This document shows positions 35,928 to 54,210 of a stretch of DNA of 64,000 nucleotides, piece after piece. The notes below the pieces were generated by a model, which saw nothing but the letters and a program-made list of their open reading frames with translations, had not been told where the DNA came from and did not search any database. The stretch is from a virus, in the IMG/VR virus record IMGVR_UViG_3300028920_000062, positions 1-64,000 of that record, one strand, 5' to 3'. A program made the translations under genes and the position numbers. Position 1 is the stretch's first letter, and every line of letters starts with the position of its first letter.

Positions 35928-35933
35928 TAATAA

Positions 35934-35964
35934 GAACGGGGAGGAGCAATCCTCCCCTTCTTTT
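35934..35964 (+). terminator. Rho-independent terminator after the tail tube gene
   Basis: ggggagga-GCAA-tcctcccc then ttctttt; near-identical to the capsid terminator. Confidence 0.85.
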
Positions 35965-35975
35965 AAGGAGATAAG

Positions 35976-37229
35976 ATGGGTCAAGGACGTGTTTACAGCG
36001 GCAATGCTAAACCTCAAGAAGCTACATACAGCCAGGATAGACCTGGGACAAACACGTCTGATGTAACGACTACCCTTGACCTGAATCCGGTCAATACCAC
36101 GCCAGCTCAACCGATCGCCGACCTCCCTGTCGGACCAGGTAATATCAATTGGCTGGGAAGCAGTTATTCTGGCGCTGATATTAAGGCCGTTGTACACACA
36201 TATAACAATGTTGGCGGACAGTTAGCTGCATTACGTGACCTCAAAATGCAAAAGATAGCCGCTGATGCTACTTCGAAAATGCTAGGCAACTATATTAATA
36301 AGGGGGCCAAAAGCTTTATACAGGCCAAAATAGCAAATGCTTCAAACCCCGATTTTACTTACGATAAGCAGGTAAACACTTGGCTTGCTATCGGTCTAGG
36401 AACGCCAGAAGGTTCTATACGTGGAGATAACAACTGGATTGCAGTCGAGGCAGATCTTGATCTTCCCGGCACTCTTCAGGCGAAGACGACAGCTCTACAC
36501 TATCTATATCTAGTTAACACTTCTAGAAGCATTGATCCCGTTATCCAGGCAATGATAATTGAAAAACAAGGTATAGATTCTTTCTTAGATAGTCTTGAGA
36601 AAAAGATTGCTTTTCTAAATATGTACCAAAATGAGGCAACCAATACTGTTGTTCTTGGTACACTACAAACTGTTTCTGTCCAGACCCACCGAGAGAAGTT
36701 CGGAGTCAGAGCTCTGGGAAGAAGCTATGTAAAGGGCTATACTCGAGGACCGCGTACTATTGCCGGGTCTATGGTATTTACTGTTTTTAATGAACATGCC
36801 CTTGGTCAGCTCATCCGAGCAATAGGAGACCCTGCATTAGTTGGTGAGAGCAAGTTAGATACTAATCTCAGTACTCTCATCCCAGACCAGCTTCCTCCGT
36901 TGGATATGACCCTAGTCTATGCAAATGAATATGGTGCTCTTTCTCGTCAGAGCATCTATGGTATAGAGTTTGTAAATGATGGCCAAACAATGTCCATTGA
37001 AGATCTTTTTACAGAAGAGGTCATGAACTTTGTTGCTCGAGATGTGGATATTATGACTTCAGTTGGTAGGCGTAAACTCTCTCAGGCTGAACGAGGCCTA
37101 TGGACCACAGATGAAGGTAAGCCGCTAGAAGGAACTCAGCTGCTTAGGAAGACTCTTTTTGGTGGTGGAAGCGCATATAAGGACTATCTGGTTAGACTTG
37201 GCGTAAGAAGAAGCTTCAGGGGTAGGTAA
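35976..37229 (+). CDS. Tail tube paralogue with large helical insertion (tube initiator/baseplate-proximal tube protein)
   Basis: SYSGADIKAV, then about 150 aa insertion, then LQTVSVQTHREK..RGPRTIAGSMVFTVF..DQLPPLDMTL..ANEYG, aligning with 35283..35927. Confidence 0.75.
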   Translation: MGQGRVYSGNAKPQEATYSQDRPGTNTSDVTTTLDLNPVNTTPAQPIADLPVGPGNINWLGSSYSGADIKAVVHTYNNVGGQLAALRDLKMQKIAADATSKMLGNYINKGAKSFIQAKIANASNPDFTYDKQVNTWLAIGLGTPEGSIRGDNNWIAVEADLDLPGTLQAKTTALHYLYLVNTSRSIDPVIQAMIIEKQGIDSFLDSLEKKIAFLNMYQNEATNTVVLGTLQTVSVQTHREKFGVRALGRSYVKGYTRGPRTIAGSMVFTVFNEHALGQLIRAIGDPALVGESKLDTNLSTLIPDQLPPLDMTLVYANEYGALSRQSIYGIEFVNDGQTMSIEDLFTEEVMNFVARDVDIMTSVGRRKLSQAERGLWTTDEGKPLEGTQLLRKTLFGGGSAYKDYLVRLGVRRSFRGR

Positions 37230-38104
37230 TGGCAAACGAAGCAAGAATTATCCGCGAGGGAGTCTATAACAACGACTATTTCTCTGGCGCACAAGTTGCT
37301 ATCTATATCGGAGATGTCCTTGTTGACGAGGTTACTTCCATTAGTCTGGCGGTAGCTCAGAGCAAGGCCCCTCTCTATGGATATGCCTCTATGCTTTTTG
37401 ATGGAGTTTCAAGAGGAAATGTTATCGTTGAAGGTGAGTTCTCTATTAACTTCAAAGAAGCTGGATATCTTTGGCTAATTCTTAATCGCTACCGTGCAAT
37501 GGTTAAAGCTCAGAATGCCGGGATATTCCTTAACGAAAACTTGAGTCCCTTCTATCGAGGGAAGGGAACTGGAGAGTATACTCTAGAAAAGACTATTGAG
37601 CAATTGACCAATGGAAGTGTTCCTCTTAGCAAGAAATATCTAAATCAGATTAACGAGATAGCTGCAAGGGCTGCTCGAGAAGATGGGATTAAAAGTATTG
37701 GTCTTGGTCCTCAAGTTTCTCAAGGACGGAAGTTGTTGAATACCCAAGCCGGTTTGGCCGGATATTCTAGTGGGCAAAGAGCTACTGGTAGTACTGGGGA
37801 CGCTGAGTCCGTATTTGAAATTTTCGAGAACTATGTTTGGGGGAAAAACTCAGGTGGGGGCAGCAGCCAGGCTCTGGAGGCCTTGGGGATTAATGATGTC
37901 GCCGCTAATCGTCGTGCCGACGAACCTGCCCTAAATCCATTTGACATTTATATAGCCTTTGGAGACTATGTAGATGACGATCGAATCCATCATACTGTTC
38001 AGAGAATCTCTGACGTTCATCTGACAGGTCAATCAAAACAGATAGTTATTGACGGTCAGCCTATACAAGAAGCATATAGCTTCTTTGCCAGAGATTTGAT
38101 ATAA
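37229..38104 (+). CDS. Second tail tube paralogue
   Basis: YFSGAQV, SKAPLYGYAS, RGNVIVEGEFSINF, PFDIYIAFG, YSFFARD. Confidence 0.7.
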   Translation: MANEARIIREGVYNNDYFSGAQVAIYIGDVLVDEVTSISLAVAQSKAPLYGYASMLFDGVSRGNVIVEGEFSINFKEAGYLWLILNRYRAMVKAQNAGIFLNENLSPFYRGKGTGEYTLEKTIEQLTNGSVPLSKKYLNQINEIAARAAREDGIKSIGLGPQVSQGRKLLNTQAGLAGYSSGQRATGSTGDAESVFEIFENYVWGKNSGGGSSQALEALGINDVAANRRADEPALNPFDIYIAFGDYVDDDRIHHTVQRISDVHLTGQSKQIVIDGQPIQEAYSFFARDLI

Positions 38105-39532: not shown

Positions 39533-42500
39533 GTGCCATATCCATTTACAGCCCAATATGGAGAGGGTGGCTTTGGTCTTGGGCCAGAGCATGGCAGGCG
39601 CTATTACGGCCCTTCTCTTACTCCTCCGCAAGACCAACCTCCGCTCTGGACCTCTGAAAGCCCAAGAGATTTTTACCAAGATACTTATGGCTCAAGCGGA
39701 TTCTTGTATGCGGGAATCGGCGCGGCAAGTTTAACTGCTCTTGGTCACCTTCCGGTAAATTTCTCAACAGGTGTACGGCCAGGTCCATGGAAGGGTATTC
39801 CACCACGAGCGTGGGCCCCCGGGCGCATGTTCGATTGGTATGCAGCTGCAGCTCGTACAGTAGAAGAATATTCTCCTGCTAAGATCTTTCGCACATTTCA
39901 GATATCTCCATTCCTGTCTCAGTTTGAGACTCCTGTCAGACAAGGTTTTACGATTACTCCTGCTCAGCTGGAAGGGAACTTTGTACAACAACAATACCTT
40001 GCTAACCTCATTGGTCCCGGTCGTGCTGGCCCTGATGGTGGGAGTGTATTGGGTAGAGTTGCCCGTGAGGGTGTTAGGCTCGAGGGCGGTAAGCTCTATT
40101 TTGCTAAGAGTGGTGAACTTGCTCTAGAGCATGCCAGCGCTATGCGTGTTGTCCCTGAGGCGCATAGTCGTCTGGGGGCTATGTGGGCTCGTATAGTCGG
40201 TCTATCCGATACAGAAGCCACAGACCTTGCTCGTTGGTTCTCTAGGGCTCATCCAGACCCTGCAGACATCACAGTACAGAACCCTCTGGTTGGAGGTATG
40301 CCAACCCAAATCATTGGCGCTCGCAGTAGAGCAGATTTTGTTTGGAAAAGCGCTCGTGCTTGGGGTGGGGAATTTATTGATCGATTCAATAGACTGCTAG
40401 AAGCTCCTTTCTCTATGGAGCCGTTCGAAACGGTATTCGGTGGGTTTCAGAAGTTTGTTAAGAGGAAGACTGCAGAGCTTGGTTTTAAAGGAGGAGATGG
40501 GTATACCTTACAGCTCGCTGTCGGGCGTGGAACCGGTCTGCGAATGCTTGGGAGCCTTGGCCTTAAGTATGGGGCTATCGTTCCTGCTGCCGCAATGGGG
40601 TACAAGACCCTAGATTGGCTAGCCAAAGAGTCTGAAACACTCGATGACACCATCTTTGAAGAAGGTCTAACTTATGCTGGAGCAACTGTTGCTGTAAAGG
40701 CAAACCTTCTTGCTTCTCAAGTTGCCTACGGATTAGGGCTTAACAAATATCGCGAGCTTCAGGAAGAAATAGCTCCAGGTAGCACAAGTTTACAAAAGCT
40801 TGCCGCCTTCCCTCTAATGGGAGGCTTGGCAGGCGTTGGAGTAGCATACGGGATTAAGATAGGAGCTCCTCCAGGTCTTCTTTCTGCTCTCCCAGAAGGA
40901 GGCATGCTTTCTCGCCAAATCTTTTTGGGAGAATCTGCTGGGGTTGCTCGAGAAGTAGTCGAAGAGCAAATCAAGCAGTTCGGTAAAGGCGAGGGTGTAT
41001 TTGGTTTTGTTGGCAGGCTTGGAAAGAAGCTTACCACAGAAGGGGGAATTTATTCTCAAGAGGGATTCCTAGGCAATGTCTGGCGTCGTATCGCCGAGCC
41101 TCATGTCAGCAGAACGGGAGATCTTAGCTTTAAGTTATTGGGCAAAGTCGGTCCTGCTAAATTATTTGGTGTAGCTGGGGCTCTGGCTGGAACCGCACTC
41201 ATTGCTCCGTTCCTTCCTGGAGCTCTGATTCCCGAGAAGTCTCCAGATGAACTCAGAGCTCTTTATAGTGGTGAGACAGAGGTCCCTATTCGTCGCGGCA
41301 GATGGTGGGAATTTGGCCGTTCTCCATATGAAGGTCGTCGAGTTTCATATTTTAGGCCTCATTGGTATGCGCGAATGCGGATGGATGCTCGAGACGAGAG
41401 TATCTGGGGCGACGAGGCATCAGAATTAAGCCCGGTAGAGAAGTGGCTAAAGTCAGAGTTTACCTATGATTTGGAAAAGAAGCACTACCGCAGTCGCCCA
41501 TATCCTGTTTCTGGACTGCCATTTGAAGATGTTCCTTTTATTGGTCCTTTTCTAGCTGGAACCATTGGACGACTGATTAAGCCTCCTGTTCTTATGCACA
41601 CAGAAGAGTGGATGGGAGAAAAGGGTGTATTAGCTGAACCTCCTAGGTTTGGCCAGCGTGTTGCTACCGAAGTGGGCGAAACCCCGGGTGGTATGCCTGA
41701 AACTCCATATGGAATTAGAGGCATTGTTGGCGAACAGATCTACAGATTACAAGAACTCGGCGGTCTCTATGGCTTCAGCATGATGACCATGCAGGAGAAG
41801 CTCAAGGGTACCCCCGATATCTTTGATCAGTTCAAACAACTCGAGTCATCCCGCAGAATGTATGGCTTTGAACGTCAGTACTGGGACCTTGAGCTTGGCG
41901 GTATGCTTGGCACTACTGAGGCGTTCCGTCGTTTATACCCTCACAGAAGACGTCAAATCCCGCTGTACAACCCGATTAGAAACTTGATGCCTGAATGGCT
42001 TCCAGGCCCCGGAGACAAATCTCCGGACTTCCTCCATGGTGACCCCTTTACAAAGGTCGCAGAGGGCGAGCTACGGCTTCCAGGACGTGGTTATGCGCAG
42101 CGTTTTCCAGAGCTCGAAGATGTTAGTCCAGAAGACTATCCGCTCATTCATCGCTTCAAAATCCTCGCTGATGTAGCTCCATACTCCTCTCGCTTTGGGG
42201 AACACCTCTCTATGGTGAGAAGAGCTCGAAAGCAAGCTGCTTGGGATAGCACCCAAGAAAAGATCTACAATCAGACCTTAGAGCAGCTAAAGGAAAGGAA
42301 GAAAGGTCAGGAGTTTGAGGAATATAAGTACCTCAATAATATGGGGGAAATTTTTGGAGAGGATATTTATTGGTCTGGAGAGGATTCTGCTGGTCTTCTC
42401 ACTCAATTGAATAAACTTAAGGCTCAGAAGCAGGAAGACCAAGGAGGAATATTTACTAGACTTTTTGGTGGATATTGGGAGCTGCTTTCTCACAATGCCG

Positions 42501-43579
42501 AGACTGCTTTAGACCAGGTAACTCCAGTCTCTCCTGGATCTAAGCTAGTTCATGTTAGAAGCCCAATTGAAGCGTATGAACGCTTGCAACTATATGGGAC
42601 TGAGAATGCATTCTGGAATCATCCTGTTAGAGACTTTTTTAGACCCACTTTTTGGCTGGGAGCTCGAGCAGCAGGTTATGAGGATGTCCCCGAACATATA
42701 GAAATGAGGAGAGAGATTGAGGCTACTTTCGACCGCCTGAAGTATGTCAAATTTGCTAGGCTATCTAATATAGCCAGACTAGAGAAGGACTGGACTGCCG
42801 TAAAGGAGTTTGAGGCCAAGAAGGACCAGACTATGTTTGGTCTTGATCCATATACTCGTAATTATACAAGTATTTTCAGGGCCTTGCCGCGCCGGGACCG
42901 TGATTACTTCAATGCGTTCTCAGAAGCTGAAACCGAGGAAGAGCGTCATCGGATTCTTGAGATAGTACCAGAAAACGAAAGATCTCTGTATGTTGCCAGA
43001 TGGAAAATGATGTTTGCCAACGAGGTGCGGGCGGCAAAAAAGGCAGGCGTGCTTAGTGAGAAACAAATTGAACAGGCAGATGTTAGGTTGGCACAAATTT
43101 ATGATGATGCAGACAGAGAAGGACTACCTGCCAGCAAAGACCTCTTAGCAGAGTACCTTGAGACTAGGTATCCCGGTGAAAGCTATGCGGATTGGTATCG
43201 CAGAGTCAAGCTTCTTGGAGGGCTAGAGTCTATTCCTGGACCTGACTGGGTAGGCTGGCATCCCTCTGTAGATCTTGAGGATATTAAGCTCAAGATGGTT
43301 ATGAACCTTGGTGAAGATATGCACGATTATGACTTGTGGCCATCTCGAGCTCAAACACTTATGAACAAGCCATATATAAATAATGAGGCCGTTACCGCGT
43401 TAACTGAGCCTGAAGAGCTTAGCAGATCGGAAATACATGATAGAATTAACAAATTGCTGTTAGTTGAGAAGATGCAACCTAGCGTTTTTAGTCGAGCAGT
43501 GTATGGACCAGAAACCGATAACTCTGTTGATTTTGAGATTGTTCAGGAACGCCCAGCTCGTAAAGGAAGTTTGTATTAA
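39533..43579 (+). CDS. Large virion protein at the tape-measure position (tape measure or ejection protein)
   Basis: 1348 aa, GTG start; several Gly-rich hydrophobic helices; follows the tail chaperones. Confidence 0.55.
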   Translation: MPYPFTAQYGEGGFGLGPEHGRRYYGPSLTPPQDQPPLWTSESPRDFYQDTYGSSGFLYAGIGAASLTALGHLPVNFSTGVRPGPWKGIPPRAWAPGRMFDWYAAAARTVEEYSPAKIFRTFQISPFLSQFETPVRQGFTITPAQLEGNFVQQQYLANLIGPGRAGPDGGSVLGRVAREGVRLEGGKLYFAKSGELALEHASAMRVVPEAHSRLGAMWARIVGLSDTEATDLARWFSRAHPDPADITVQNPLVGGMPTQIIGARSRADFVWKSARAWGGEFIDRFNRLLEAPFSMEPFETVFGGFQKFVKRKTAELGFKGGDGYTLQLAVGRGTGLRMLGSLGLKYGAIVPAAAMGYKTLDWLAKESETLDDTIFEEGLTYAGATVAVKANLLASQVAYGLGLNKYRELQEEIAPGSTSLQKLAAFPLMGGLAGVGVAYGIKIGAPPGLLSALPEGGMLSRQIFLGESAGVAREVVEEQIKQFGKGEGVFGFVGRLGKKLTTEGGIYSQEGFLGNVWRRIAEPHVSRTGDLSFKLLGKVGPAKLFGVAGALAGTALIAPFLPGALIPEKSPDELRALYSGETEVPIRRGRWWEFGRSPYEGRRVSYFRPHWYARMRMDARDESIWGDEASELSPVEKWLKSEFTYDLEKKHYRSRPYPVSGLPFEDVPFIGPFLAGTIGRLIKPPVLMHTEEWMGEKGVLAEPPRFGQRVATEVGETPGGMPETPYGIRGIVGEQIYRLQELGGLYGFSMMTMQEKLKGTPDIFDQFKQLESSRRMYGFERQYWDLELGGMLGTTEAFRRLYPHRRRQIPLYNPIRNLMPEWLPGPGDKSPDFLHGDPFTKVAEGELRLPGRGYAQRFPELEDVSPEDYPLIHRFKILADVAPYSSRFGEHLSMVRRARKQAAWDSTQEKIYNQTLEQLKERKKGQEFEEYKYLNNMGEIFGEDIYWSGEDSAGLLTQLNKLKAQKQEDQGGIFTRLFGGYWELLSHNAETALDQVTPVSPGSKLVHVRSPIEAYERLQLYGTENAFWNHPVRDFFRPTFWLGARAAGYEDVPEHIEMRREIEATFDRLKYVKFARLSNIARLEKDWTAVKEFEAKKDQTMFGLDPYTRNYTSIFRALPRRDRDYFNAFSEAETEEERHRILEIVPENERSLYVARWKMMFANEVRAAKKAGVLSEKQIEQADVRLAQIYDDADREGLPASKDLLAEYLETRYPGESYADWYRRVKLLGGLESIPGPDWVGWHPSVDLEDIKLKMVMNLGEDMHDYDLWPSRAQTLMNKPYINNEAVTALTEPEELSRSEIHDRINKLLLVEKMQPSVFSRAVYGPETDNSVDFEIVQERPARKGSLY

Positions 43580-46500
43580 TGGCTAAGGATCCGAAGGAGT
43601 TTGAAAGAGGAGAGAGCTTCTTCAAGAAGGCTCTTATTGGTACTCCAGCTGCTGTTGGCGCGGGTATTGGTATTCGTAGAATGGTCAAGGATCTTCAGGA
43701 AGCACAGGCGCGCGGCGCAGAGATTATGTATCGCAAGCCCCTGGCTTCTGTCGATGCTATAGCGCATGCAACTGGTATCTCTGAAGAGATGATTGGTCGC
43801 GCCACAGCTGCGCGGGAAGAACGCTTAGCTTTTATGTCTAGGAACTGGGATCGTTTCAAAACCCCTGAAGGTATGAGTGTCCTTAAGCGCTCGTGGCTAG
43901 ACGCCATGCGTTTTGCCGATCCTATATCACAAACTAAGCTTTTGAGCTTTACGGAACGCGTTAACCTTAGAGGCATGACAGAACCCACTGATGTTTTTAA
44001 CGCTATTCAGCGTACTCTAGAAGCAAATAATTCCTCTCTTATGGGAAGGGTATTTGAGCGTTTTGAGAGCAATGTTGTTGGATTTGAGAGGCATGTTCTT
44101 GCTGGTCTAGATCCCATGGATTTGGGGACGCCTTTTCAGTTTCGACCTGAAAGGGTAGCGGGCTTAGACCTTTTAGACCTGCCTAATGAACTAGGGTACA
44201 GAGCATCTAAGATTGCAGCCAGTCTGGATGCTAATGTGGGGGTTACTAGATATACCCGATCAGACGTATTCGGAAAGCAGTCTCCAGAGGTTTTTAAACT
44301 GTCATTTAACCAAAAAGGACAGACTCTTGTAGACCTCATGGTTCCTGTTACTCAACGCGGAGCTTTTTTTGAAGGTGAAGCCTTAAGAAGTAAATATGTT
44401 TCTACCAGCGTTATCGTAGGGAATGCTGAGGGTGGCCCCAAACTGATGTCCAGGGAGGAATATCTTCTTAGGCAGTTTGAAAGAGAGATTGTTCCCCAGA
44501 TCAAGTCAGGGCAACTAACAGAACCTTATGAAATTAATGCGGCTGTTAAGCAACTTAGAGCAGATATTCTGCATAAAATGGAGAATGTAAAAAATCTGCC
44601 TCCTGATTTAGAGGATGACGCAATTAAGGGATATCGTCTTAGCCGTAGTGAAGGCGTAGATATCAGGTGGGACCTTCCAGAAAGAGAACTAGAAGAACGA
44701 AGAAAAAAGATGTTACCTGGATACCATCCTACAACTCGACCAGCTACTCCTGAAGAAATTGCCTCTATAGCGAAACATCCTTCAATCGGAAAACTTTTTG
44801 GAGGTGTTTCTCCGGCAAATATCGCTGAAGGTCGCCGATCTTTTATGGACTGGAGTAAGATAGTTTCTGCTTCTCCTTTTGCCTATGATTGGGGTCGTCG
44901 CCCGGAACAGTTCTCAAGAGAGTTCGCCCTTAGCGAAGAAGCTGTTGCAGCAATTGAACGAGAGGGCTATAGGGAATCCGATATATTTGCGACTGGAAGA
45001 ATGCGAGACCTGTATAAGAAGGGAGGTCTTCCTCCACATCTTCGTGTTCTTTACCTTAATCCCGAGAAACATGCTTTGCTAATGGAGCAGCTAGGTATTG
45101 GTCGCGGTGAAGGTCTTATGAGGGAGGGTTTAAGGGAACTCCTTGAGCAGCGTGTATTTAAGTCTACGAATATTGTAGGCATGAATATGGAGACCTTGCA
45201 AAAAATTCAGGCTGGCGGGCAATTGCTAAAGGGACAGGTGCTTGGACAAATTGCTGAAACTGGTCTTCCTTTTGTAGTAGAAGATCCAGAATCTATTAAG
45301 GCAGCAGTAGGCCATTGGTCTGAAGGGGCAGGAGATTACGTCACTATTCATCAGGTAAACAGACATCGTCTTCTAAGTCATGAGAAATGGTTTAATGACC
45401 TTAAGATGTTGGCTCGCTTTACAGACGAGGAAGTAATGCAAGATGCCGCATCTAGGGCAGGTGTGAGTCGCCGTCTAGTTGGAGAGGGCTTCGATGTATT
45501 AACTCAAGTAGGCAAAGAGATTGTTAGGGGTCAAGGATTCGATGTTATTGCTAGTACAGAAGACTTGACCAAGAATCCAGGTTTGCTAACTAAGCAGATT
45601 GTATCCGGAATCCACGACACTTTGTCAATTCGAGAACTCGAGTCTAGGGGTATTAACTTTGACTTTGCCACTCTGGGGGTTCGTCCGTCTCCCAAGATTG
45701 ATAAATTTCTCGATCATCCCCTGACATTTCTTCGTATGTGGGACAGGATGTCTCAAACCCCAGAAGGTGCATTTGACCAGCAGGCATTTATTAAACGTGC
45801 CATGAAGTTCTCTGTTGAACATGCAGGTCTAAGTCCAGAGGAGTTTGGGTCAGCATTTGGTGTAATTCCAGAGGTTGAAAAGGAATGGCAGGCCCTTACA
45901 TCACAAACGCTAGCTGGTGCTGGCCTCAGAGACGTTAGTATTAAAGAATATATAAAGGCCATGGAAGAGGGAACTGCAATAGGAAGAGCACAGCTTTTCT
46001 GGGGTGGTCCAGCCCGTCTTCGAGGTGCTGGCGGTTTAGGTTCTATTGAGCCTCGTCTTTTTGAAATGCTGTCTGGAGGAGTCTACGGAGAAACAGGGAA
46101 AGAACTTGCAAAAGAATTTGCAGAACGTGCTGTTGGGACAGATCCTCAAAAAAGAGCACTTAGCGAAGCACTTGCCACAACAATGGCTTCTATAGGAGGT
46201 CAGATTAAACGAAAGAAAGGGGAGGCTATTTGGGATATCGCTGAGCAAAGTATAGCTGAAGATGATATTGCAAAACAATTTGAAACATTTCTAGAGAGTG
46301 GCGGTGGATGGATGCGGGCCAAAAAGGGAGCAAAAGAAGTTTTTGTTCCTGGGCTTGATAACCTTACTGCTATGCAACCTTTTACTACTGCTGGCGGAAA
46401 GGGAGTGCGCGGAGCAGTTCCGGATATTTTTTATAACATGCTTTATAAGGGAGCTGAGTTCGCCGAAGGATCCTTGGGGGAGAAGGCTTACGAGCGCCAT

Positions 46501-48177
46501 ATGAACGAGAGTTTAGCTGCTCTATGGAGGGAAGCAGCTCCCGCAGGAAAGGGCGGCGGCGCTTGGCAGCGTGGTAAAATTGCTGGTTCTAGATTCTTGG
46601 AAATTACCTCTATGGTTGATGGCCAGATGCCTGCACACGCAAACGAGGTGCTTGTGTCTACAGAGAAGATGAAAGATATGGTTAATGAGATGAGACAATT
46701 CATGCCTAAAGAAGAGTTTGAGAAGTTTGCTGCACAAGCTGAGACAGGCACGATGGAAGGCATAGTGGCTCGCCACCCATTTATTGGTCAGTATTCTGCT
46801 CAGCCTGTCACAATCAGAGCTATTAAAACTGCCAAGGGTACTAGCAAAAACATGATTGCTATTCAAGAAAGGGCTGCTCGAGTAACCTTTGGTTTTGCAG
46901 GAGAGAAGGCGCAAGAAAAGCTAATGCTGATGACCCCTCTTTTGGGTATGGCTGCTGATAAAGATGCTGATGAGGCTGCGCTTTTCTTGGTACGCTCTAA
47001 GAATGCAGACCGCCTGAAGGCGATGATGCAAGGAAAGGCCAACCAGTTTACTACTGCCTATGCACAACATCAAATGCGTCTTCAGCTCCTAAAGGCATCA
47101 AAAGCTGCAGGTGGAGCTGCCGGTTTGTCTCAGAGTGGCAAGATGGCAGCAGATGTTCTCAAATTGGGAGTTACTCAGTCTCATGTTCCTAAGCTGTCTG
47201 TAGAGCTCAGTATGGCAAGACAGGCTGTTGGTCATGCACTTACAGGCCAGACAGAGGCAGATGCTCGTTTCTTGTTGGAATGGTTAGAGCAGAACCCAAT
47301 TTCCGCAAAGCACATGAACGCCAGAGAGATTTCCGAGGGTGGATTAAGGCAGCTTGATACGATCACTAATGCGCTAAAAAAGAAAGATTCAGGTACTCTA
47401 ATTGAAGAGATAAATAAGATTGTTAAGGATAATGAGATAGCCAGAAGGTTTCTTAAAGAAGACATTATGATCCAAGATGCCGTAATGGCTGATGACGGAA
47501 CGAAGTTAAATATTAGCAAACGTTTGAAGGCGATTAATGTAGAGCAGACGGTCAGAAGCCTTATGGATGCGAGACATAAGTTTGAAAAGTCTGGCGAAGC
47601 TAAACTGGCTCGTATTATGGCAGGTAGAGGCCCTCGCATGAGGCCTGTACAGGATCTTCCTCGGTTTCTTAATGCCGTGCAACAGACCGGAAACAAGGCC
47701 TTTTCTGGAGTTGCTAAAGGTATGAACACTGCAGCTAATCTTCTCCAGGCGGCTGGACGAACTGCTATTAAGCATCATAAGCCTATAGGCCTAGGATTTG
47801 CTGGCTCTATTGCTCTAGCTATGACTCTTTCTTCTCCCAAGGATACTATTGGACCAGGAGCTAATTTAGACCCAGGAGATGTTGATATGAACCAGGGGCA
47901 GGCTGCTGGAAAAATGAAGCCTGCAGATCTGATGCCACCACCTCAGGCTATGGGTAGTCCTCAGGCTCCTGGCATGATGCATTCGCCTCGGGCAATGATT
48001 GGGCCTCCCGTTCAAAGCAATAGAACTAGGGTAGTAGCTAGAACTAATTATGCAATGAATACACAAAACTTAGCCTCGCGCATCAACCAGATGACTAATA
48101 ATAGAAGATCTGTTAATCTGAGCATCAGAGACAGAAGGTCTCCCGCTGACTTCTCTGGCGGAAATACGCTCTACTAA
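43579..48177 (+). CDS. Large virion protein with degenerate two-barrel RNA polymerase-like motifs
   Basis: 1532 aa; HEKWFNDLK (45379), FDVIAS, RGKIAGSRF (46570), VARHP (46765), MAADKDADE (46948-46974); hydrophobic segments at both termini. Confidence 0.55.
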   Translation: MAKDPKEFERGESFFKKALIGTPAAVGAGIGIRRMVKDLQEAQARGAEIMYRKPLASVDAIAHATGISEEMIGRATAAREERLAFMSRNWDRFKTPEGMSVLKRSWLDAMRFADPISQTKLLSFTERVNLRGMTEPTDVFNAIQRTLEANNSSLMGRVFERFESNVVGFERHVLAGLDPMDLGTPFQFRPERVAGLDLLDLPNELGYRASKIAASLDANVGVTRYTRSDVFGKQSPEVFKLSFNQKGQTLVDLMVPVTQRGAFFEGEALRSKYVSTSVIVGNAEGGPKLMSREEYLLRQFEREIVPQIKSGQLTEPYEINAAVKQLRADILHKMENVKNLPPDLEDDAIKGYRLSRSEGVDIRWDLPERELEERRKKMLPGYHPTTRPATPEEIASIAKHPSIGKLFGGVSPANIAEGRRSFMDWSKIVSASPFAYDWGRRPEQFSREFALSEEAVAAIEREGYRESDIFATGRMRDLYKKGGLPPHLRVLYLNPEKHALLMEQLGIGRGEGLMREGLRELLEQRVFKSTNIVGMNMETLQKIQAGGQLLKGQVLGQIAETGLPFVVEDPESIKAAVGHWSEGAGDYVTIHQVNRHRLLSHEKWFNDLKMLARFTDEEVMQDAASRAGVSRRLVGEGFDVLTQVGKEIVRGQGFDVIASTEDLTKNPGLLTKQIVSGIHDTLSIRELESRGINFDFATLGVRPSPKIDKFLDHPLTFLRMWDRMSQTPEGAFDQQAFIKRAMKFSVEHAGLSPEEFGSAFGVIPEVEKEWQALTSQTLAGAGLRDVSIKEYIKAMEEGTAIGRAQLFWGGPARLRGAGGLGSIEPRLFEMLSGGVYGETGKELAKEFAERAVGTDPQKRALSEALATTMASIGGQIKRKKGEAIWDIAEQSIAEDDIAKQFETFLESGGGWMRAKKGAKEVFVPGLDNLTAMQPFTTAGGKGVRGAVPDIFYNMLYKGAEFAEGSLGEKAYERHMNESLAALWREAAPAGKGGGAWQRGKIAGSRFLEITSMVDGQMPAHANEVLVSTEKMKDMVNEMRQFMPKEEFEKFAAQAETGTMEGIVARHPFIGQYSAQPVTIRAIKTAKGTSKNMIAIQERAARVTFGFAGEKAQEKLMLMTPLLGMAADKDADEAALFLVRSKNADRLKAMMQGKANQFTTAYAQHQMRLQLLKASKAAGGAAGLSQSGKMAADVLKLGVTQSHVPKLSVELSMARQAVGHALTGQTEADARFLLEWLEQNPISAKHMNAREISEGGLRQLDTITNALKKKDSGTLIEEINKIVKDNEIARRFLKEDIMIQDAVMADDGTKLNISKRLKAINVEQTVRSLMDARHKFEKSGEAKLARIMAGRGPRMRPVQDLPRFLNAVQQTGNKAFSGVAKGMNTAANLLQAAGRTAIKHHKPIGLGFAGSIALAMTLSSPKDTIGPGANLDPGDVDMNQGQAAGKMKPADLMPPPQAMGSPQAPGMMHSPRAMIGPPVQSNRTRVVARTNYAMNTQNLASRINQMTNNRRSVNLSIRDRRSPADFSGGNTLY

Positions 48178-48186: not shown

Positions 48187-51100
48187 ATGGCTACTGACAC
48201 AGGGTATTTTCAGATCAACGACCTCATATTTCAGGTCCCACCGGAAGCAATTAAAGTCAATAGAAGGGCTGTGAACAATTATTGGCAGACTCTACGTACA
48301 CGTTCGTCCATCAAGCTATCTTCGGGGTACTCTATCTTAGACATTGAAGTGTCGATGAAAGTCATTGCTGAGGGTAACGAGCTAGAAAAGCTTTCTTGCC
48401 TTGTTGCTCAGTTGCGCGTAACTCCGTTTTGTTGGATAAAAAACCAGTATATTAGGAACACTGTCTTGGGTGGGCAGACTAAACAGGCCATGGTTCTTGC
48501 TCTCAAACAACTGGAGATACGCAAGTCAGCTGGAGAAGATACCAACATTATTGAAGTTTATATGCTTTTCTCTTGGTTTAATTATCTGCCTTATATGAAG
48601 GACTGGCTTTATAAGGAAGATATTTTTGTTCCCAAACCCGTTGAAGATCCTCGCAAATCAAGGGCTTGGCGTATTATGTATGCTGCCGAGAAGATGAGAG
48701 GGCCTTATCAGGTTCCTCCAAGTCTTTACTCTAATGCAGTTTTAGATCTGCGGCAGTTTATGACTGTTACCAAAAAGAAGTTTAAGCAACTTAAACAAGA
48801 TGTAGCTTTTCTAAAAGAGTTTAGAGGACAAATAGAGGCATCTCTTCCAAAGAAAGGAACTTCTGAATTTCCCGGGGTAGTAGATAATATTATCCAGTCT
48901 CTTGTAAAAAGTGCAGGGAAAGAGAGAGTTCATCGTTCGTTATCCAGCGTTTTTGGGCATACGACAACTGCTGTAGGCGAAGTGGGAGTAGAAGAACTTC
49001 TCCATCTTATTGATGTCGATATTACTGCTAAAGGACAAGAGGTTGAATCCTATAACAAAGTATACGAAGCAACAACGCGGGGTTGGGAAGTTGCTAAATT
49101 AGCAGACGGAACGCCCATTGAGATTGTTGGTAAAGCTGATGCAACTATTGATGAGAAGAGTGATCTGTCTGGGGAAGATGATCAGATATTGATGGAGTCT
49201 AATCGTGTTCTGAATTTTGAGAAGGCAGGACTTATTATTACCGGTGTCTCTGTTAGCTTTGAGAACATTCTCGCAACTATGCCAGTTATTGGGCATCCAT
49301 ATCCCTCTTTTCAGCACATAGGAAGCATAGATGCCGTAGTGACACTGTCTTTTGTTACGACTTCTGAGAATTCTATACAGGCAATTTCTAATTTTTATAC
49401 AATCTGTCAAGATCAGTCTCGTAAGTTTAGGCAGGTTCCCGAGGGGATCAGGAACGTTGTTATCAGCAATGACATCGTTAATATGTGCGGTCTTCATGAG
49501 TTTCTTATTGAGGATTTAAGACAGGGAACTATGCCTGGCCAGCCGGGGACCTATTATGGCGAACTCGTATTGGTCAATAACCCGCTTGATGCCAAGACCA
49601 AGGAGGGTCTGGTGCTCTCTAGTGATTTTATTACAGACAATACTTTAAGACTAAAGGTTATAGAAATTTTAGACCAGTATGTAAAGTTTAATGATCAGGA
49701 TATCAGAACAGATATAGATAATGAGACGTCAGAATTCGGGAAGTTCGTGGGTGTTGCTGATAAATCAATAGAAGTCTTGGTCCGCAGTCCATACGATCAG
49801 GTTAAGCCTGGGGGCTCTGGGAAGCATATAGCAACTAACCAGGGGGTCCAGCGTAAGGCTACTGTAATTAGCCCATATGGTGAAGGACTGTCCAAAAAGG
49901 GTTTTGAGGATTTTCCTGCTACTAATGCGTATTATATAGATAGTGAGAACAATAAGAGAATTAGTTCTGGTGGTTATTATTCGTTCAATAATACTTTTGA
50001 TAATCGCCAGGCCGCTCTCAGGCATTTCGTTGTTCGCTATATGAATTCTTTAACCAAGGTGTTTTCTTCACTGTCATCTCTCTTCATCAAGGACTGGCAG
50101 GGACATAACCTTGGAATAACCAAAGGAATGGTTGACCATAATACCATTTCGCTTTTTACTTTGACAGATGATCAGGTACCCGGAATTGGCAGACTTCGCA
50201 AGGACTTAATTGCCACTGCAAGGAAATTCAGAAGAAGAGGAAAGTTTAACTTAAATCCGTCATCATCAACTGACACCGAAGGTATATCATCTCGAGGAGA
50301 AATGTATCAATTTCTTTTTGATTCTTGGAACGAAATGAAAGATCTTCCGCTTTCTGACCAGCGCCGAAAGCATTCGATAATACTTGAAAGATTAGACTTT
50401 TTTGCCGCAGAAGCCCTTAAGGAAAAGAAGTTCGGTGGTAACCCACATGCCATTAACAGTACCAGCTTTCTTCACTTTAGAGATGCTTTTATAGATAAGT
50501 ATCTCAAAGACTTTAGGAAAGAGATATTGGATCTTACTCGAGATATTCAGAAGTCTCAGGTATTTGACTTAGATATTTTTCAGCCAGTTAAGGATCTTTA
50601 TAAAGAGGCTGGTCTTCCCTCTAAGGGGAATAATTACCCGGACTTTCCTCTGACTCAGGTGATTGAGATTCTAAGACAACGAAGTGACTGGGATAAAATA
50701 AAGGCTAAGATCGAAGAGCGTAGAGATCTGGCTGGTCTTGCAGTATACAATGTTTCTCTTGAGGCTCTAATTAATCCTGACTTCTATCTATATAATAAGA
50801 CAACAGATTCTACTTCTGATCTAATTAGTCGTCAGCTTATTAATGAAGCTAAAGAGGCGATCAAATTAACACAAGGACAATTACAGGTAGACGCCGAAGC
50901 TGACTGGGTTACCAATACATACAACAGACATATTATTGGGACTACTCTTGCAGAACGAATAACAAATGATGTTAAGAATGGAACCAGCAATAAAGACAGA
51001 GTTGAGGAAATTCGAGCACGGAGAAAAGAGCTGGAAGAGACAGGAAAAAATCCAGAGCTTATTAATTATCTAAATCAGCGCGACAGGCTTTTGGAAGAAG

Positions 51101-54100
51101 GAGTTTTCCACATCGATGATCTTTCTGGCCCGCCGCTAGGTAATGCAATTTCAGAAAATGTAACCGAAGAGGGAGCTCTCGGTATCTCAATTAAAGCTAT
51201 TAATAATCTAAAAGATAAAGCAAATTTGACTATATCTGTTCGTGACGAACAGCAACTAGTTCCAGATCTAGAGCACTATGCTTTGGCTAAGCATCGCTTT
51301 GATATCTTGGGATCTCTCGATGAACAATCTGCGGCAGAATATAGGCCTCCACCTAATTTTGATCCAAACAAAGATCCTGTTTGGGCTTGGCCTACTTCTG
51401 AACCTGGGAATACAAGGATAACTCCAAATACCGGTTATTTTGGAAAGCCAAGAGAAAATATTGGTAAAGACAAAAATATAACTACTGGTCGACACCTCGG
51501 GATAGATATTATTAGTAAATTTGGTAAGGAAAGAACTAGACAATTGTTTGTCCGCGCCGCTGCTGACGGCAAGATCATTGAAGTTTCTAATAATTATGAA
51601 ATATATGGACATGAGTCGAAGTGGAGAGAGGGTCCTGCAGACTCTTGTGTCTATATCAAGGTGCAGCATGCCAACGGGTGGGTTACTTCCTATAAACATT
51701 TGCAGTGGGAACCTACAATTAAGAAATATTCTGATCTTTTCCATGGTCGTCTTGCAGGACAAGAAATTTGGGTCAGACAAGGAACAGTGCTAGGTAAAGT
51801 TGGAACTACTGGTCCTTCAACTGGGCCTCATCTTCATTTTGCAATGATAAAGACAAAGGGAAATCCGCCTGCTGGGGTAAACACCATAAATCACAAGAGA
51901 GGAATATATGTCGATCCAAACCAAATGCTTTCTGCTGGAGAGTTTGTTTCTCAAGGTCCTGTTTATGGAGTTGACCCTAATAACGAATCTTTGTTTACTA
52001 AAAGTGTAGAACAATTTGACAAGGAAATGCAAAGTGGACAAGGCTATAGCCTCATGCGAGCCTATCCTACCTTTCGCTTGTATTTTATTGAATCTGACCT
52101 TGAAGAACGCAAGATCTTTGGGTTCGATGACTTCTTCTCTTATAGTGCTGTACAGGATATCCAGGTTGTTCGGAGCAGAAAGATTGCTGCCGACCTAATG
52201 GTTATTAGCCTAACAAATACTTCTGGTGTGCTTACCAATAGAAAATTTAGGGGACAGGGTCGTGATAACCAGCATAGGGATTTTCAGGGGAAGATAGCCA
52301 AAGAGAATGTCAAAGATCTCTCTGCCAGAAATACAATTAGAGAAAACCCAATTGCTTCTCTTATGGTTCAGCCAGGCATACAGGTACAATTAAGGTTGGG
52401 ATATCACTCTAGCCCAGATGAGCTAGAGCGTGTTTTTAATGGTGTTATTACTGATGTAGATATGTCAGAAGACGAAGATATCGTTAATATTACATGTCAG
52501 AGCTTTGGTATCGAATTAACACAGAAGGTCTATGGTGAAGCTAAGAACTATGGTGGATGGCTCAAAGGATCTGGGAAAACTTCTGAAATCCTTGAAGATC
52601 TTATGTCTCAGCCAGAGATGGTTCACTTTGGGCGGTGGAATGCAGGAGAGCCATATAATGGCGCTTATGGTCTACTTCAAACTCGTTTTCAATTTCAACC
52701 GACCCCTCAAGACGATAACCTCTTTCCTCCAACCGGAAAAAAGGGATTCTATAGTTTGTTCGATAGTACCCCAAAATACATAATGTATAACACTACCGTG
52801 TGGGATACTTTTCAGGAAATGACTTTGCGTCATCCCGCATATATCACCTATCCAGTTCCTTATGACGGTAGAGAAGGTCCTCGTATGACTATGTTTTTCG
52901 GGGTTCCAAATCAATTATATTTTGCTCGAGATCCCACTTTGCGCGAAAAGGAAGCTATGGGCAGTATTAAGAATCTGGCTACAAAAACAAATTCTATCAT
53001 TGATGAAGTAAAGGATGGTCAGAAGTCGAATAAGGATATCTCAAAAAGCGCAATAGGAGCTGTAGCTGGGATTGGAACCCTAGCTCTTGCCCCCGCCTTG
53101 TTGCCTCTTGCTTCTCTTGGAATCCCTTTGTTAGCTGCTGGCGGAAAAGATGATCGCTTGAGAGAAATCTGGATTAACAGGTCTCTTCTTAGATATGCCA
53201 AAGATAGAGGCTTTATTAAGCCATTTAGAAATTATCACGTACTTACCAGCACCATGCATATCCTGAAGAACTCGATCTCTAGCAGCAGCTGGAATACATT
53301 TAATACTGTTACTTTGAATTACGAGGATGACGCAGCTGAGGTTGAAAAAGAGAAGAAGAGTTTAGTCTTTAATGAACGCGAAACGATGTCTATGAAGTGT
53401 GATGCGGGGCTTCCTGATGAAGAGATCAGAGAGCTCATGACGTCTTGGCCTAATTGCATTCAGGACGAAATGGCAAAGAGATATTCGGTTGCTTTACTTT
53501 GGAACTCTTTAAAAGAAGGATATTCTGGGAGTCTTGTAACTATTGGAAACCCTTCAATTAAACCTCATGACGTATGCTATGTGTTTGACGAATATAACGA
53601 TATGGTGGGTCCTATTGAGGTTGAACAAGTAGTCCATAGGTTTTCTCAGAATACTGGATTTGTTACAGAAATTACTCCCGATATGTGTATCCATATCAAT
53701 CAGGCAAGTACAATGGCTGTATCTGATGCAGTGGGGCTGGCAGTAGAGGGAGCAATGCAAGAAATGGGTCTGCAGCCTTTGGCTAGTGTTATTGGAGCTT
53801 CACGTGGCATTAAGCGTACTGCCGGCTTAGCAAGGATTGGTGGGTTAGACGCTGAAACGGGTATACTGGCTAGTGAAATGGCTGGCGCTGCAGCAAGGAC
53901 TGCTATGAGTATAGCTCTTGCTCCGTTTTCTGGACTTCTCTATGTTCCTAAACTAACGGGTGCGTTTATTATGCGTAAGTTAATTACTCGGTCACAGACT
54001 GCGCATCCGTTCCGGTATAGTCCTTTAGTGAAACAAGGCAAGCCAATGATTGGAGGATTCCCTTCTAGGTATGTGGATGGTAGCTTTATCCAGGGTATTG

Positions 54101-54210
54101 ATAGATATTTCAAGGAGAATGCGGAGTCTATCCCGCTGTATCTAGACCACTTGTATGATAAAATCGTGGTCAATGACTGGATTCATGTCCGAGGGAAGAT
54201 AGGAGGATAG
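48187..54210 (+). CDS. Baseplate hub / tail-associated lysin with M23 peptidase domain
   Basis: 2007 aa; M23 motifs HLGID (51493), YKHL, GTTGPSTGPHLHF (HLH 51829); hub-like QLRLGY..FNGVITDV..ITCQSFG and GSLVTIGNPSIKPHD..VVHRFS..GFVTEI. Confidence 0.85.
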   Translation: MATDTGYFQINDLIFQVPPEAIKVNRRAVNNYWQTLRTRSSIKLSSGYSILDIEVSMKVIAEGNELEKLSCLVAQLRVTPFCWIKNQYIRNTVLGGQTKQAMVLALKQLEIRKSAGEDTNIIEVYMLFSWFNYLPYMKDWLYKEDIFVPKPVEDPRKSRAWRIMYAAEKMRGPYQVPPSLYSNAVLDLRQFMTVTKKKFKQLKQDVAFLKEFRGQIEASLPKKGTSEFPGVVDNIIQSLVKSAGKERVHRSLSSVFGHTTTAVGEVGVEELLHLIDVDITAKGQEVESYNKVYEATTRGWEVAKLADGTPIEIVGKADATIDEKSDLSGEDDQILMESNRVLNFEKAGLIITGVSVSFENILATMPVIGHPYPSFQHIGSIDAVVTLSFVTTSENSIQAISNFYTICQDQSRKFRQVPEGIRNVVISNDIVNMCGLHEFLIEDLRQGTMPGQPGTYYGELVLVNNPLDAKTKEGLVLSSDFITDNTLRLKVIEILDQYVKFNDQDIRTDIDNETSEFGKFVGVADKSIEVLVRSPYDQVKPGGSGKHIATNQGVQRKATVISPYGEGLSKKGFEDFPATNAYYIDSENNKRISSGGYYSFNNTFDNRQAALRHFVVRYMNSLTKVFSSLSSLFIKDWQGHNLGITKGMVDHNTISLFTLTDDQVPGIGRLRKDLIATARKFRRRGKFNLNPSSSTDTEGISSRGEMYQFLFDSWNEMKDLPLSDQRRKHSIILERLDFFAAEALKEKKFGGNPHAINSTSFLHFRDAFIDKYLKDFRKEILDLTRDIQKSQVFDLDIFQPVKDLYKEAGLPSKGNNYPDFPLTQVIEILRQRSDWDKIKAKIEERRDLAGLAVYNVSLEALINPDFYLYNKTTDSTSDLISRQLINEAKEAIKLTQGQLQVDAEADWVTNTYNRHIIGTTLAERITNDVKNGTSNKDRVEEIRARRKELEETGKNPELINYLNQRDRLLEEGVFHIDDLSGPPLGNAISENVTEEGALGISIKAINNLKDKANLTISVRDEQQLVPDLEHYALAKHRFDILGSLDEQSAAEYRPPPNFDPNKDPVWAWPTSEPGNTRITPNTGYFGKPRENIGKDKNITTGRHLGIDIISKFGKERTRQLFVRAAADGKIIEVSNNYEIYGHESKWREGPADSCVYIKVQHANGWVTSYKHLQWEPTIKKYSDLFHGRLAGQEIWVRQGTVLGKVGTTGPSTGPHLHFAMIKTKGNPPAGVNTINHKRGIYVDPNQMLSAGEFVSQGPVYGVDPNNESLFTKSVEQFDKEMQSGQGYSLMRAYPTFRLYFIESDLEERKIFGFDDFFSYSAVQDIQVVRSRKIAADLMVISLTNTSGVLTNRKFRGQGRDNQHRDFQGKIAKENVKDLSARNTIRENPIASLMVQPGIQVQLRLGYHSSPDELERVFNGVITDVDMSEDEDIVNITCQSFGIELTQKVYGEAKNYGGWLKGSGKTSEILEDLMSQPEMVHFGRWNAGEPYNGAYGLLQTRFQFQPTPQDDNLFPPTGKKGFYSLFDSTPKYIMYNTTVWDTFQEMTLRHPAYITYPVPYDGREGPRMTMFFGVPNQLYFARDPTLREKEAMGSIKNLATKTNSIIDEVKDGQKSNKDISKSAIGAVAGIGTLALAPALLPLASLGIPLLAAGGKDDRLREIWINRSLLRYAKDRGFIKPFRNYHVLTSTMHILKNSISSSSWNTFNTVTLNYEDDAAEVEKEKKSLVFNERETMSMKCDAGLPDEEIRELMTSWPNCIQDEMAKRYSVALLWNSLKEGYSGSLVTIGNPSIKPHDVCYVFDEYNDMVGPIEVEQVVHRFSQNTGFVTEITPDMCIHINQASTMAVSDAVGLAVEGAMQEMGLQPLASVIGASRGIKRTAGLARIGGLDAETGILASEMAGAAARTAMSIALAPFSGLLYVPKLTGAFIMRKLITRSQTAHPFRYSPLVKQGKPMIGGFPSRYVDGSFIQGIDRYFKENAESIPLYLDHLYDKIVVNDWIHVRGKIGG

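Follow-up and report, generated by a model that had tools for sequence, protein, structure and literature searches.

The closest precedent for a transcription enzyme built into a phage tail is P23-45 gp96 (also present in P74-26, G20c, and TSP4), a virion RNA polymerase (RNAP) fused to the tail tape measure (PDB 8H2M/8H2N), whose N-terminal approximately 1100 residues are an active RNAP transcribing the pre-early genes (PMC10770324). In the literature searched, tape-measure-linked virion RNAPs were documented only for such P23-45-like Thermus siphoviruses (2024). Other polymerases, namely QDE-1 and RDR2, YonO, P23-45 gp64 and P74-26 gp62, and the crAss-like phi14:2 gp66, carry a beta-like part before a beta-prime-like part in a single chain; the enzymes of the QDE-1/YonO/gp64/gp66 clade are not encoded in tail modules, and gp66 is part of a huge head-packaged protein. 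This study analyzed a 64,000-nucleotide stretch of viral DNA (positions 1 to 64,000 of IMG/VR record IMGVR_UViG_3300028920_000062; hereafter, the window), in which the 1532-amino acid (aa) protein P0001 is encoded within the tail module. P0001 is predicted to have the same single-chain order of parts, and we favor, with moderate confidence, the reading that it is a single-polypeptide two-barrel polymerase, most likely a DNA-dependent RNAP, that is delivered through the tail.

Judging from its predicted structure, P0001 almost certainly has the fold and active-site signature of a two-barrel RNAP. AlphaFold2, run on a 50-sequence alignment, gave one model of aa 460-1400 (pLDDT 87.2, pTM 0.87) and another of aa 1-480 (pLDDT 87.8, pTM 0.77). 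In the first model, positions 1-359 correspond to aa 460-818, positions ~415-916 to aa 874-1375, and positions 544-683 to aa ~1003-1142. A Foldseek search of the PDB with this model returned 64 matches at E<=1e-3, and the top 50 were all RNAP beta-prime subunits (Thermus, Mycobacterium, Streptomyces, and E. coli) or the phiKZ non-virion RNAP (nvRNAP), with E values of 1e-4 to 8e-4. When the same model was searched with VIA-align against 48,161 chains, QDE-1 ranked first (Z 12.0-12.3, root-mean-square deviation [rmsd] 4.3, 341 residues aligned [range 321-379], model positions 24-912), with both halves covered. Maize RDR2 (Z 10.4), P74-26 gp62, a P23-45-type non-virion RNAP (Z 10.1, 324 aligned, model positions 13-911), and P23-45 gp96 (Z 8.2 over 298 residues at rmsd 4.4, and Z 7.9) were also retrieved. 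VIA-align comparison with the best 999 chains from Foldseek placed 687 at Z>=8.

The two halves of the model could each be matched to one of the large subunits of multisubunit enzymes, and the beta-prime and beta subunits of cellular and phiKZ/AR9-type RNAPs aligned to them at Z 6.8-11.7. On model positions 1-359, the beta-type subunits were those of phiKZ nvRNAP (7ogp_C, Z 9.8, 255 aligned) and X. oryzae (6j9e_C, Z 8.7), followed by plastid beta (8qma_A, Z 8.1) and Pol I subunit B (4c2m_B, Z 6.8). The largest subunits that aligned to the other half came from Pol I, II, III, and IV and from archaeal, vaccinia, African swine fever virus, and bacterial (including mycobacterial) enzymes. A second double-psi beta-barrel (DPBB-B) was found in the model N-terminal to the beta-prime-like barrel (DPBB-A), with QDE-1, RDR2, gp62, and gp96 aligning across both halves; the beta-like half was judged within the aa 460-1400 model rather than by a separate search. 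The designed protein msDPBB (7dww_A) aligned to model positions 544-683 over 85 of its 86 residues (Z 7.9, rmsd 2.3), and the CDC48 N domains (Z 8.6-9.5) and VAT-N (Z 7.0) fell on the same segment, which bears RHP and DKDAD. The double-psi barrel that a preliminary description of this DNA had predicted from the sequence was therefore present in the predicted structure, with isolated DPBB domains at Z 7-9.5 and largest subunits at Z 9.6-11.7.

The region preceding the catalytic core matched RNAP less closely. Resemblances of aa ~200-480 to vaccinia Rpo132 (Z 6.9, 224 aligned), AR9 nvRNAP chain c (Z 6.5), X. oryzae beta (5.9), and plastid beta (5.6) each lie within the noise range, yet they are co-linear with the rest of P0001. 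A Foldseek search with the aa 1-480 model found nothing at E<=1e-3, and its best match was M. smegmatis beta (E 0.056). From about aa 200 to 1375, the modeled protein begins with a counterpart of the beta N-terminus, continues through the beta barrel and a connector to the beta-prime barrel, and closes with the long helices. No flap/SBHM insert, zinc clusters, or small subunits were noticed in P0001, although no search was aimed at them, and the failure of phi14:2 gp66 and PolD to turn up in the fold-search lists is uninformative.

Residue conservation was assessed in 128 aligned family members, the most distant of which shares 18% identity with P0001. No more than seven columns were invariant (G556, R826, P924, P1067, D1127, D1129, and D1131). 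Near-invariant positions included K1244, E1237, and S1207 (127 of 128 each) and R1065, K665, E824, and R850 (126 each); G510 (127), K603 and Q673 (123 each), H1245 (116), and K609 (115 K and 7 R) were also kept, as were G1003 (124), S1004 (122), G992 (119), and R998 (115). The preliminary description had staked its proposal on the RHP and DxDxD residues being conserved among homologues, and they were, D1127, D1129, D1131, and P1067 in all 128 sequences and R1065 in 126. Because the Asp triad and the RxP element are at the top of conservation in a family reaching down to 18% identity, this is the pattern expected of an active site. Together with the predicted fold, these conserved elements support the earlier proposal that P0001 is a divergent two-barrel RNAP.

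DKDAD is the sole DxDxD in the 1532 aa of P0001; the peptide LGMAADKDADEAALF, encoded at nt 46942-46986, places D1127, D1129, and D1131 at nt 46957-46971. The pattern [RK]xPx{20,100}DxDxD, a published RNAP filter (Chaban et al., PMC10770324, Supplementary Data 4), occurs once in P0001 (R1065...D1127). Shuffled versions of P0001 matched it in 22 of 500 trials (4.4%), so the motif alone is only suggestive. In the family consensus, too, Ala (DxDAD) stands where the canonical loop has Gly. The loops DDDKD, DNDKD, DFDID, DSDFD, and DVDID occur in phage RNAPs that are active or accepted as RNAPs (PMC10770324, Supplementary Data 4), and the missing Gly is thus no sign of inactivity. No D?DAD loop and no entry for ME3, Moorella, or 0305phi8 was listed in that table, which covers only viruses with at least two RNAPs. 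The conservation pattern makes it probable that P0001 is catalytically competent.

Every peptide listed in the preliminary description was found by translation, in the order given there, and the elements that it had compared with beta and beta-prime motifs fared differently. GEGLMRE and LLKGQVLG contain conserved glycines (G510 and G556, respectively), but neither peptide could be tied to a particular motif of beta. FDVIAS, proposed as the analogue of beta PDIIxN, was not borne out, with D655 being invariant in the 8 closest sequences only and kept in <85% of the 128, and EVLVS was not conserved in homologues. Upstream of DPBB-A, GKGGGAWQRGKIAGSRFL resembles what we take to be the GKxGRxR..GKR..SxRS element preceding that barrel in beta-prime, and we regard this as a lead only. 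R826, within the conserved EPR motif, may be the counterpart of the arginine of beta PSRM. EQxPISxKH (E1237, K1244, and H1245) follows DPBB-A, and the largest-subunit alignments reach about model position 916; from this position after the barrel, aa 1185-1245 is a candidate bridge helix and trigger loop.

Sequence searches placed P0001 outside the known families. Pfam gave nothing for P0001 (at E<=0.1) or for the adjacent upstream protein P0002; neither did PHROGs, and no tape-measure PHROG or Pfam family was found for P0001. A tblastn search of P0001 against 50,697 phage records returned no match, and the PF05183 profile (eukaryotic-type RNA-dependent RNA polymerase/YonO) did not detect P0001. 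A family profile retrieved noise only from all PDB sequences (AcvB at E 0.047; troponin C). A word-indexed search yielded four P0001 homologues only (29-57% identity). An exhaustive search of 1.84 billion cluster representatives with a profile of aa 460-1400 yielded 240 homologous clusters (50% identity) at E<=1e-3, 170 of them at E<=1e-30. Nearly all homologues measured 1400-1600 aa, and none of the best 150 of the 240 exceeded 1851 aa. The family profile found one copy per contig in the four related contigs. PF00623 and PF05183 had no match in the window contig or the three related contigs; these contigs are 35-54% complete, so the absence of a second RNAP from the genomes does not follow. 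In the literature searched, neither the P0001 family nor its ME3 counterpart ME3_36 (see below) was found described as an RNAP.

Compared with gp96, P0001 shares an arrangement more than a lineage. Both are single-chain two-barrel RNAPs or RNAP-like proteins at the tape-measure locus of the tail module, with hydrophobic segments and an M23-type metallopeptidase nearby and with a dispensable N-terminal extension before the core, and the RNPVMG...DFDGD of gp96 and the RHPFIG...DKDAD of P0001 have an RxPxxG...DxDxD arrangement in common. The M23 domain of the downstream hub protein P0003 (aa 1102-1223) matched gp96 aa 3181-3250 (BLASTP, E 1e-9), and the modules fused in gp96 thus appear to be spread over neighboring genes here. 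By contrast, the gp96 polymerase is the N-terminus of a 5002-aa protein, whereas P0001 is a separate gene product that is almost entirely polymerase and is not joined to a long tape measure that also bears membrane and metallopeptidase domains. The present phage also differs in having its peptidase in the next gene, a contractile tail, a jumbo-class genome (estimated at ~190 kb), and a DxDAD loop. The activity and virion presence of gp96 have been demonstrated; those of P0001 are predicted. Alignment of the 50-sequence P0001 profile with gp96 aa 1-1200 by hhalign gave a probability of 0.2%, and BLASTP gave a 17-aa chance match only. P0001 is gp96-like in its predicted working and is not a member of the gp96 family; its model is structurally nearest to the QDE-1/RDR/gp62 single-chain clade, even though PF05183 does not detect it. 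Multisubunit RNAPs share with P0001 the Asp triad and the RxP element, with the two-Lys logic as a candidate further common feature, but P0001 would hold both barrels in one chain of ~1200 residues.

The window is the start of a 78,981-bp viral contig that CheckV rates as 41% complete, which gives the genome size of about 190 kb. Its large open reading frames (ORFs) are all on the plus strand, and its DNA was present in three marine-sediment metagenome runs, one of them its probable source, with no RNA run listed. ORF calls and the junction sequence agreed with the earlier assignment of the gene to 43579-48177 and with its TAATG coupling to the preceding gene: the ATG of P0001 shares 1 base with the TAA of the 1348-aa ORF P0002, the junction reads gtatTAATGgct, and a ribosome-binding site, GGAAG, lies upstream of the start. 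P0002 ends GSLY (43562-43579) and P0001 ends NTLY (48157-48177); the two closest P0001 homologues also end LY.

By large terminase, the nearest cultured relatives are Moorella phage MTATph1, Acinetobacter phage ME3, and Bacillus phage 0305phi8-36 (28-34% identity). The order of tail chaperones, giant protein, P0001, and hub, noted in the preliminary description, proved by BLASTP to be orthologous to 0305phi8-36 gp143-147 and ME3_33-37. A scan of IMG/VR added three loci syntenic with the P0001 locus, and all three kept the five-gene order (chaperone pair, P0002, P0001, and P0003) with homologous flanks; two of the three also had TAATG. P0001 occupies the position of a tape measure but is predicted to lack the extended helical ruler of that class. 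We rejected a conventional tape measure ruler for P0001 because aa ~200-1375 are predicted to form a compact alpha/beta enzyme (pTM 0.87).

The occupant of this slot differs between relatives, as the slot proteins of 0305phi8-36 and the Moorella phage are without DxDxD. In 0305phi8-36, the same slot of the orthologous module is held by gp146 (20624-28237; 2537 aa), annotated as a "hypothetical tape measure protein" and as a virion protein by mass spectrometry. Unlike P0001, gp146 shows no similarity to the polymerase core, and 0305phi8-36 encodes a separate YonO-like RNAP, gp99, elsewhere in its genome. The C-terminal layouts of gp146 and P0001 are nevertheless alike, in that a Gly/Ala hydrophobic segment is followed by a Pro/Gln-rich linker and the chain ends in NxNIxDxRS, and hhalign matched the C-terminus of the P0001 family to the last ~50 aa of gp146 (...NFNANISDDRS...; E 5.5e-4, probability 30%). 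In MTATph1, the slot protein is CDS0027 (17390-21319; 1309 aa). The P0001 family profile found no homologue in MTATph1 or 0305phi8-36, and hhalign of the family against gp99 and CDS0027 gave nothing. The slot gene of the Moorella phage is separated from the hub gene by a transposase gene and three other small genes.

In Acinetobacter phage vB_AbaM_ME3 (KU935715.1), the slot between ME3_35 and the ME3_37 hub holds ME3_36 (AND75197.1), a 1603-aa "hypothetical protein." Its BFVD model was the second-best viral structural match to the P0001 model (E 1.4e-8, TM 0.34-0.39). ME3_36 contains a single REP...DHDQD (REPAQG) and has N- and C-terminal hydrophobic segments, of which the N-terminal one (aa 26-44) is stronger than that of P0001. 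An hhalign comparison with the P0001 family was weak and in register over the G556/K603-K609 region (E 0.0066). The two proteins differ in sequence to the extent that no BLAST-level similarity was found and the family profile does not retrieve ME3_36; a tblastn search with ME3_36 returned ME3 itself only.

Other viral models also matched that of P0001. A second ME3 protein (BFVD A0A172Q0S6, 798 aa; E 6.7e-4) could be a non-virion RNAP paralogue. Among the BFVD matches A0A8S5SD80_1, A0A075BUT7_2, A0A7J4_2, and A0A7R7G2L5_2 (E 3.7e-11 to 2e-4) are a Siphoviridae sp. ctnpt50 product annotated as a "minor tail protein," a 1258-residue chunk, and giant proteins from two Microcystis phages, MaMV-DC and Ma-LMM01. 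Giant tail or virion proteins that contain an RNAP core may occur more widely than the P0001 family.

The high-confidence predicted RNAP fold and the invariant Asp triad suggest that the phage probably brings along a transcription enzyme when it enters the cell. A DNA template and an RNA product are likely for P0001, and a place in the virion followed by ejection, by analogy with gp96, is only slightly less so. The latter is suggested by the constant placement of the gene between the chaperone pair and the hub, the coupling to P0002, the gp146-like C-terminal module and hydrophobic segments, and the gp96 precedent. In the proposed mechanism, a beta-like module (aa ~200-870) would be fused with a beta-prime-like module (aa ~875-1375); D1127, D1129, and D1131 would bind the catalytic Mg2+, and conserved basic residues of the beta-like barrel (K603, K609, K665, and R826) would complete the site. 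P0001 would be assembled into the tail lumen or the hub with the help of the two chaperones and expelled into the cell on tail contraction, where it would transcribe the first phage genes independently of the host RNAP. It may also help to draw the DNA in. The same model has been proposed for P23-45 gp96.

Several observations weigh against this proposal. P0001 has no sequence-level link to known RNAP families, whether through PF00623, PF05183, or hhalign to gp96 and gp99, and the gp146 match at the C-terminus is a weak one (E 5.5e-4, probability 30%). Because the slot proteins of 0305phi8-36 and MTATph1 are without DxDxD, the slot alone implies no polymerase, nor does a polymerase imply the slot. 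The top structural neighbors QDE-1 and RDR2 are RNA-dependent, which bears on the template preference. Moreover, a compact core of ~1200 residues could not lie natively in a tail tube, so that storage in an unfolded state or at another site would be needed. P0001 does not look like a ruler; either P0002, the gp145-like protein, would measure the tail or P0001 would be stored unfolded.

The template question leads to the competing explanation that survives best, in which P0001 is active and virion-delivered but is an RNA-dependent or primer-synthesizing enzyme, or a motor that pulls the genome in via nucleotide polymerization. QDE-1 (Z 12.0-12.3) and RDR2 (Z 10.4), the best structural neighbors, copy RNA; QDE-1 is reported also to copy single-stranded DNA (PMC9508822). 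The genome of the present phage is double-stranded DNA, and the characterized phage members of the clade in the literature searched are DNA-dependent RNAPs (gp96 and gp64) or are called RNAPs (YonO-like proteins and crAss gp66). The top rank of QDE-1 may also reflect its single-chain architecture and similar size. We consider this explanation unlikely.

A little less likely again is an active non-virion RNAP that is co-expressed with the tail genes and serves late or middle transcription. P23-45 and phiKZ-like phages do encode non-virion RNAPs as well, but an RNAP made only with the late structural genes would have little left to do by the time it appeared. In four uncultured contigs and ME3, the gene always lies between the chaperone pair and gp145-like gene on one side and the hub on the other, with the 1-nt overlap of start and stop codons, and the terminal hydrophobic segments and gp146-like C-terminal module would have no role in a soluble cytoplasmic RNAP.

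We regard as improbable the explanation that the polymerase fold of P0001 has lost catalysis and been exapted, acting now only as a structural tail, tape-measure, or ejection protein. Conventional tape-measure-like proteins hold this slot in 0305phi8-36 and the Moorella phage, and the loop reads DxDAD instead of DxDGD; however, a non-Gly residue at that loop position occurs in active RNAPs, and the most conserved positions across the 128 sequences (identity to 18%) are the Asp triad, the proline of RxP, and several basic residues, which is an active-site signature rather than that of a scaffold. Finally, that P0001 is not a polymerase at all, the motif being due to chance (it occurs in 4.4% of shuffles) and the structural matches to an AlphaFold and aligner artefact (Foldseek TM-scores are low, about 0.15, and the VIA-align notes allow Z 8-12 for unrelated helical proteins), is very improbable, as the model is mixed alpha/beta and of high confidence, matches exclusively RNAP catalytic subunits of bacteria, archaea, eukaryotes, and viruses in co-linear order, and aligns with isolated DPBB domains, over nearly the whole of those domains, at an rmsd of about 2 A exactly over the RxP...DxDxD segment.

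Returning to the favored reading of a tail-delivered RNAP, we tentatively extend it to the family: possibly, a large unrecognised group (at least 240 clusters at 50% identity) of single-chain two-barrel RNAPs took over the tape-measure slot in a lineage of contractile-tailed phages of ~190 kb, with a structurally related counterpart in the cultured Acinetobacter baumannii phage ME3. Tape-measure chaperones would load these proteins into the tail or hub by way of a C-terminal module that once belonged to a conventional tape measure. Sheath contraction would drive them through the envelope, the terminal hydrophobic segments would anchor them, and they would couple genome entry to pre-early transcription that does not depend on the host. 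Such an arrangement would have originated separately from the P23-45 fusion. The novelty is somewhat lowered because gp96 (2024) is a close precedent. If the reading is true, a two-barrel RNAP in the tail would be a recurrent solution of large contractile-tailed phages and not a thermophile oddity, reached with an unrelated sequence family and a stand-alone gene instead of a fusion. It would raise the mechanical question of how a myovirus tail could store and expel a ~130 kDa core and of what sets the tail length. With the P0001 family, the two-barrel polymerase tree would gain a deep and well-conserved branch that was missed by Pfam, PHROGs, and HHalign to single sequences, with a bearing on the annotation of "hypothetical" giants in phage metagenomes. 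ME3, through ME3_36, offers a cultured and tractable case, and current surveys list it as being without RNAP.

Table 1. Features of P0001 and of the surrounding tail module, with window coordinates.
Feature	Position (nt)	Strand	Evidence
Tail sheath and three tube-like paralogues	33367..38104	+	phrog_16991 tail sheath, E 5e-80; phrog_9206 three times; 0305phi8-36 gp139-141 are sheath, tube, tube paralogue
Two tail-assembly-chaperone-like genes, 153 and 316 aa	38119..39530	+	BLASTP ME3_33 E 6e-13; gp143/gp144 E 9e-7, 1e-5; kept in three related loci
P0002, 1348 aa, upstream giant	39533..43579	+	BLASTP ME3_35 E 4e-68; 0305phi8-36 gp145 E 4e-22
P0001, whole gene, 1532 aa, single-chain two-barrel RNA-polymerase-like protein	43579..48177	+	ORF and translation; 240 homologous clusters
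Gly/Ala-rich hydrophobic N-terminal segment, aa 17-33, ALIGTPAAVGAGIGI	43627..43677	+	pLDDT <50; G27 invariant in 8 closest sequences
Helical bundle, aa ~56-177, unknown role	43744..44109	+	pLDDT 74-97; generic CARD-like/bromodomain-like matches only, Z 5-6.6
aa ~200-480, weak resemblance to RNAP beta N-terminal part	44176..45018	+	VIA-align Z 5.6-6.9
Predicted beta-like catalytic half, aa 460-818	44956..46032	+	pLDDT mostly >90; has G556, K603-x-F-x-D-x-K609, K665, Q673
K603...K609 (KWFNDLK), candidate basic pair of beta-like barrel	45385..45405	+	K603 123/128, K609 115 K + 7 R; adjacent strands, model 142-147 and 151-156
E824-P825-R826 motif	46048..46056	+	126/123/128 of 128
Predicted beta-prime-like half, aa 874-1375: DPBB-A then long helices	46198..47703	+	Largest subunits Z 9.6-11.7 on model ~415-916
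GKGGGAWQRGKIAGSRFL, aa 990-1007, before DPBB-A	46546..46599	+	G990, K991, G992, G994, R998, G999, G1003, S1004, R1005, L1007 invariant in 8 closest sequences
Predicted DPBB-A barrel, aa ~1003-1142	46585..47004	+	Isolated DPBB domains on model 544-683, Z 7.0-9.5, rmsd 2.0-2.8
R1065-H-P1067-F-I-G, [RK]xP element	46771..46788	+	R 126/128, P 128/128; 59 residues before DxDxD
D1127-K-D1129-A-D1131, predicted metal-binding loop	46957..46971	+	Asp triad 128/128; between short helix (PLLG) and strand (AALFLV), as in beta-prime
Two long helices and LLEWLEQNPISAKH, aa 1185-1245, candidate bridge helix/trigger-loop region	47131..47313	+	Helices at model 726-761 and 764-783; E1237, K1244, H1245 kept
Gly/Ala-rich hydrophobic C-terminal segment, aa 1403-1420, PIGLGFAGSIALAMTLSS	47785..47838	+	Conserved in family; equivalents in 0305phi8-36 gp146, ME3_36
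Terminal motif SVNLSIRDRRS, aa 1511-1521	48109..48141	+	Family consensus NxNxRDxRxSL
P0003, 2007 aa, baseplate hub with M23 peptidase	48187..54210	+	PF01551 E 5.5e-11; PHROG hub and endolysin; BLASTP to ME3_37, gp147 hubs

The N-terminal segment of P0001 (aa 17-33) stays below a Kyte-Doolittle 19-aa mean of 1.4, and its conservation is partial. P0002 contains Gly-rich hydrophobic segments, with hydropathy peaks at aa 423-441 and 544-562. Its orthologue gp145 is annotated as being in virions by mass spectrometry, and an ESM Atlas search with P0002 gave scores of <=0.78 and no lead.

In the remainder of the tail module, the sheath and tube-like paralogues show that the tail is contractile, and a baseplate wedge gene lies downstream of P0003. 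The three consecutive paralogues at 35283-38104 (plus strand; 214, 417, and 291 aa) all align with phrog_9206 over its first ~160 positions. The label of that PHROG, "major head protein," is misleading here because synteny with 0305phi8-36 gp140/gp141 identifies the three as a tail tube and tube paralogues. Of the chaperone-like proteins, that of 153 aa matches ME3_33 and gp143 ("tail chaperonin") and that of 316 aa matches gp144. The 153-aa ORF also matches the N-terminus of the 316- and 347-aa proteins in related loci (its aa 55-110 against aa 8-63 of the 347-aa protein, E 2e-8), a pattern that recalls the chaperone pairs, alike in their N-terminus, found ahead of tape measures.

Elsewhere in the window, the interval 28001-30000 has a GC content of 0.549 compared with about 0.45-0.49 in other parts and lies inside a fibre-like gene (28284-29945; PHROG minor-tail and tail-fibre matches). 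A protein of 2418 aa encoded upstream of the terminase (106-7362, plus strand) contains a staphylococcal-nuclease domain at aa 1144-1261 (PF00565, E 1.6e-15), matches a 2317-aa PHROG of unknown function, and may be a multi-enzyme effector protein that is packaged in the virion.

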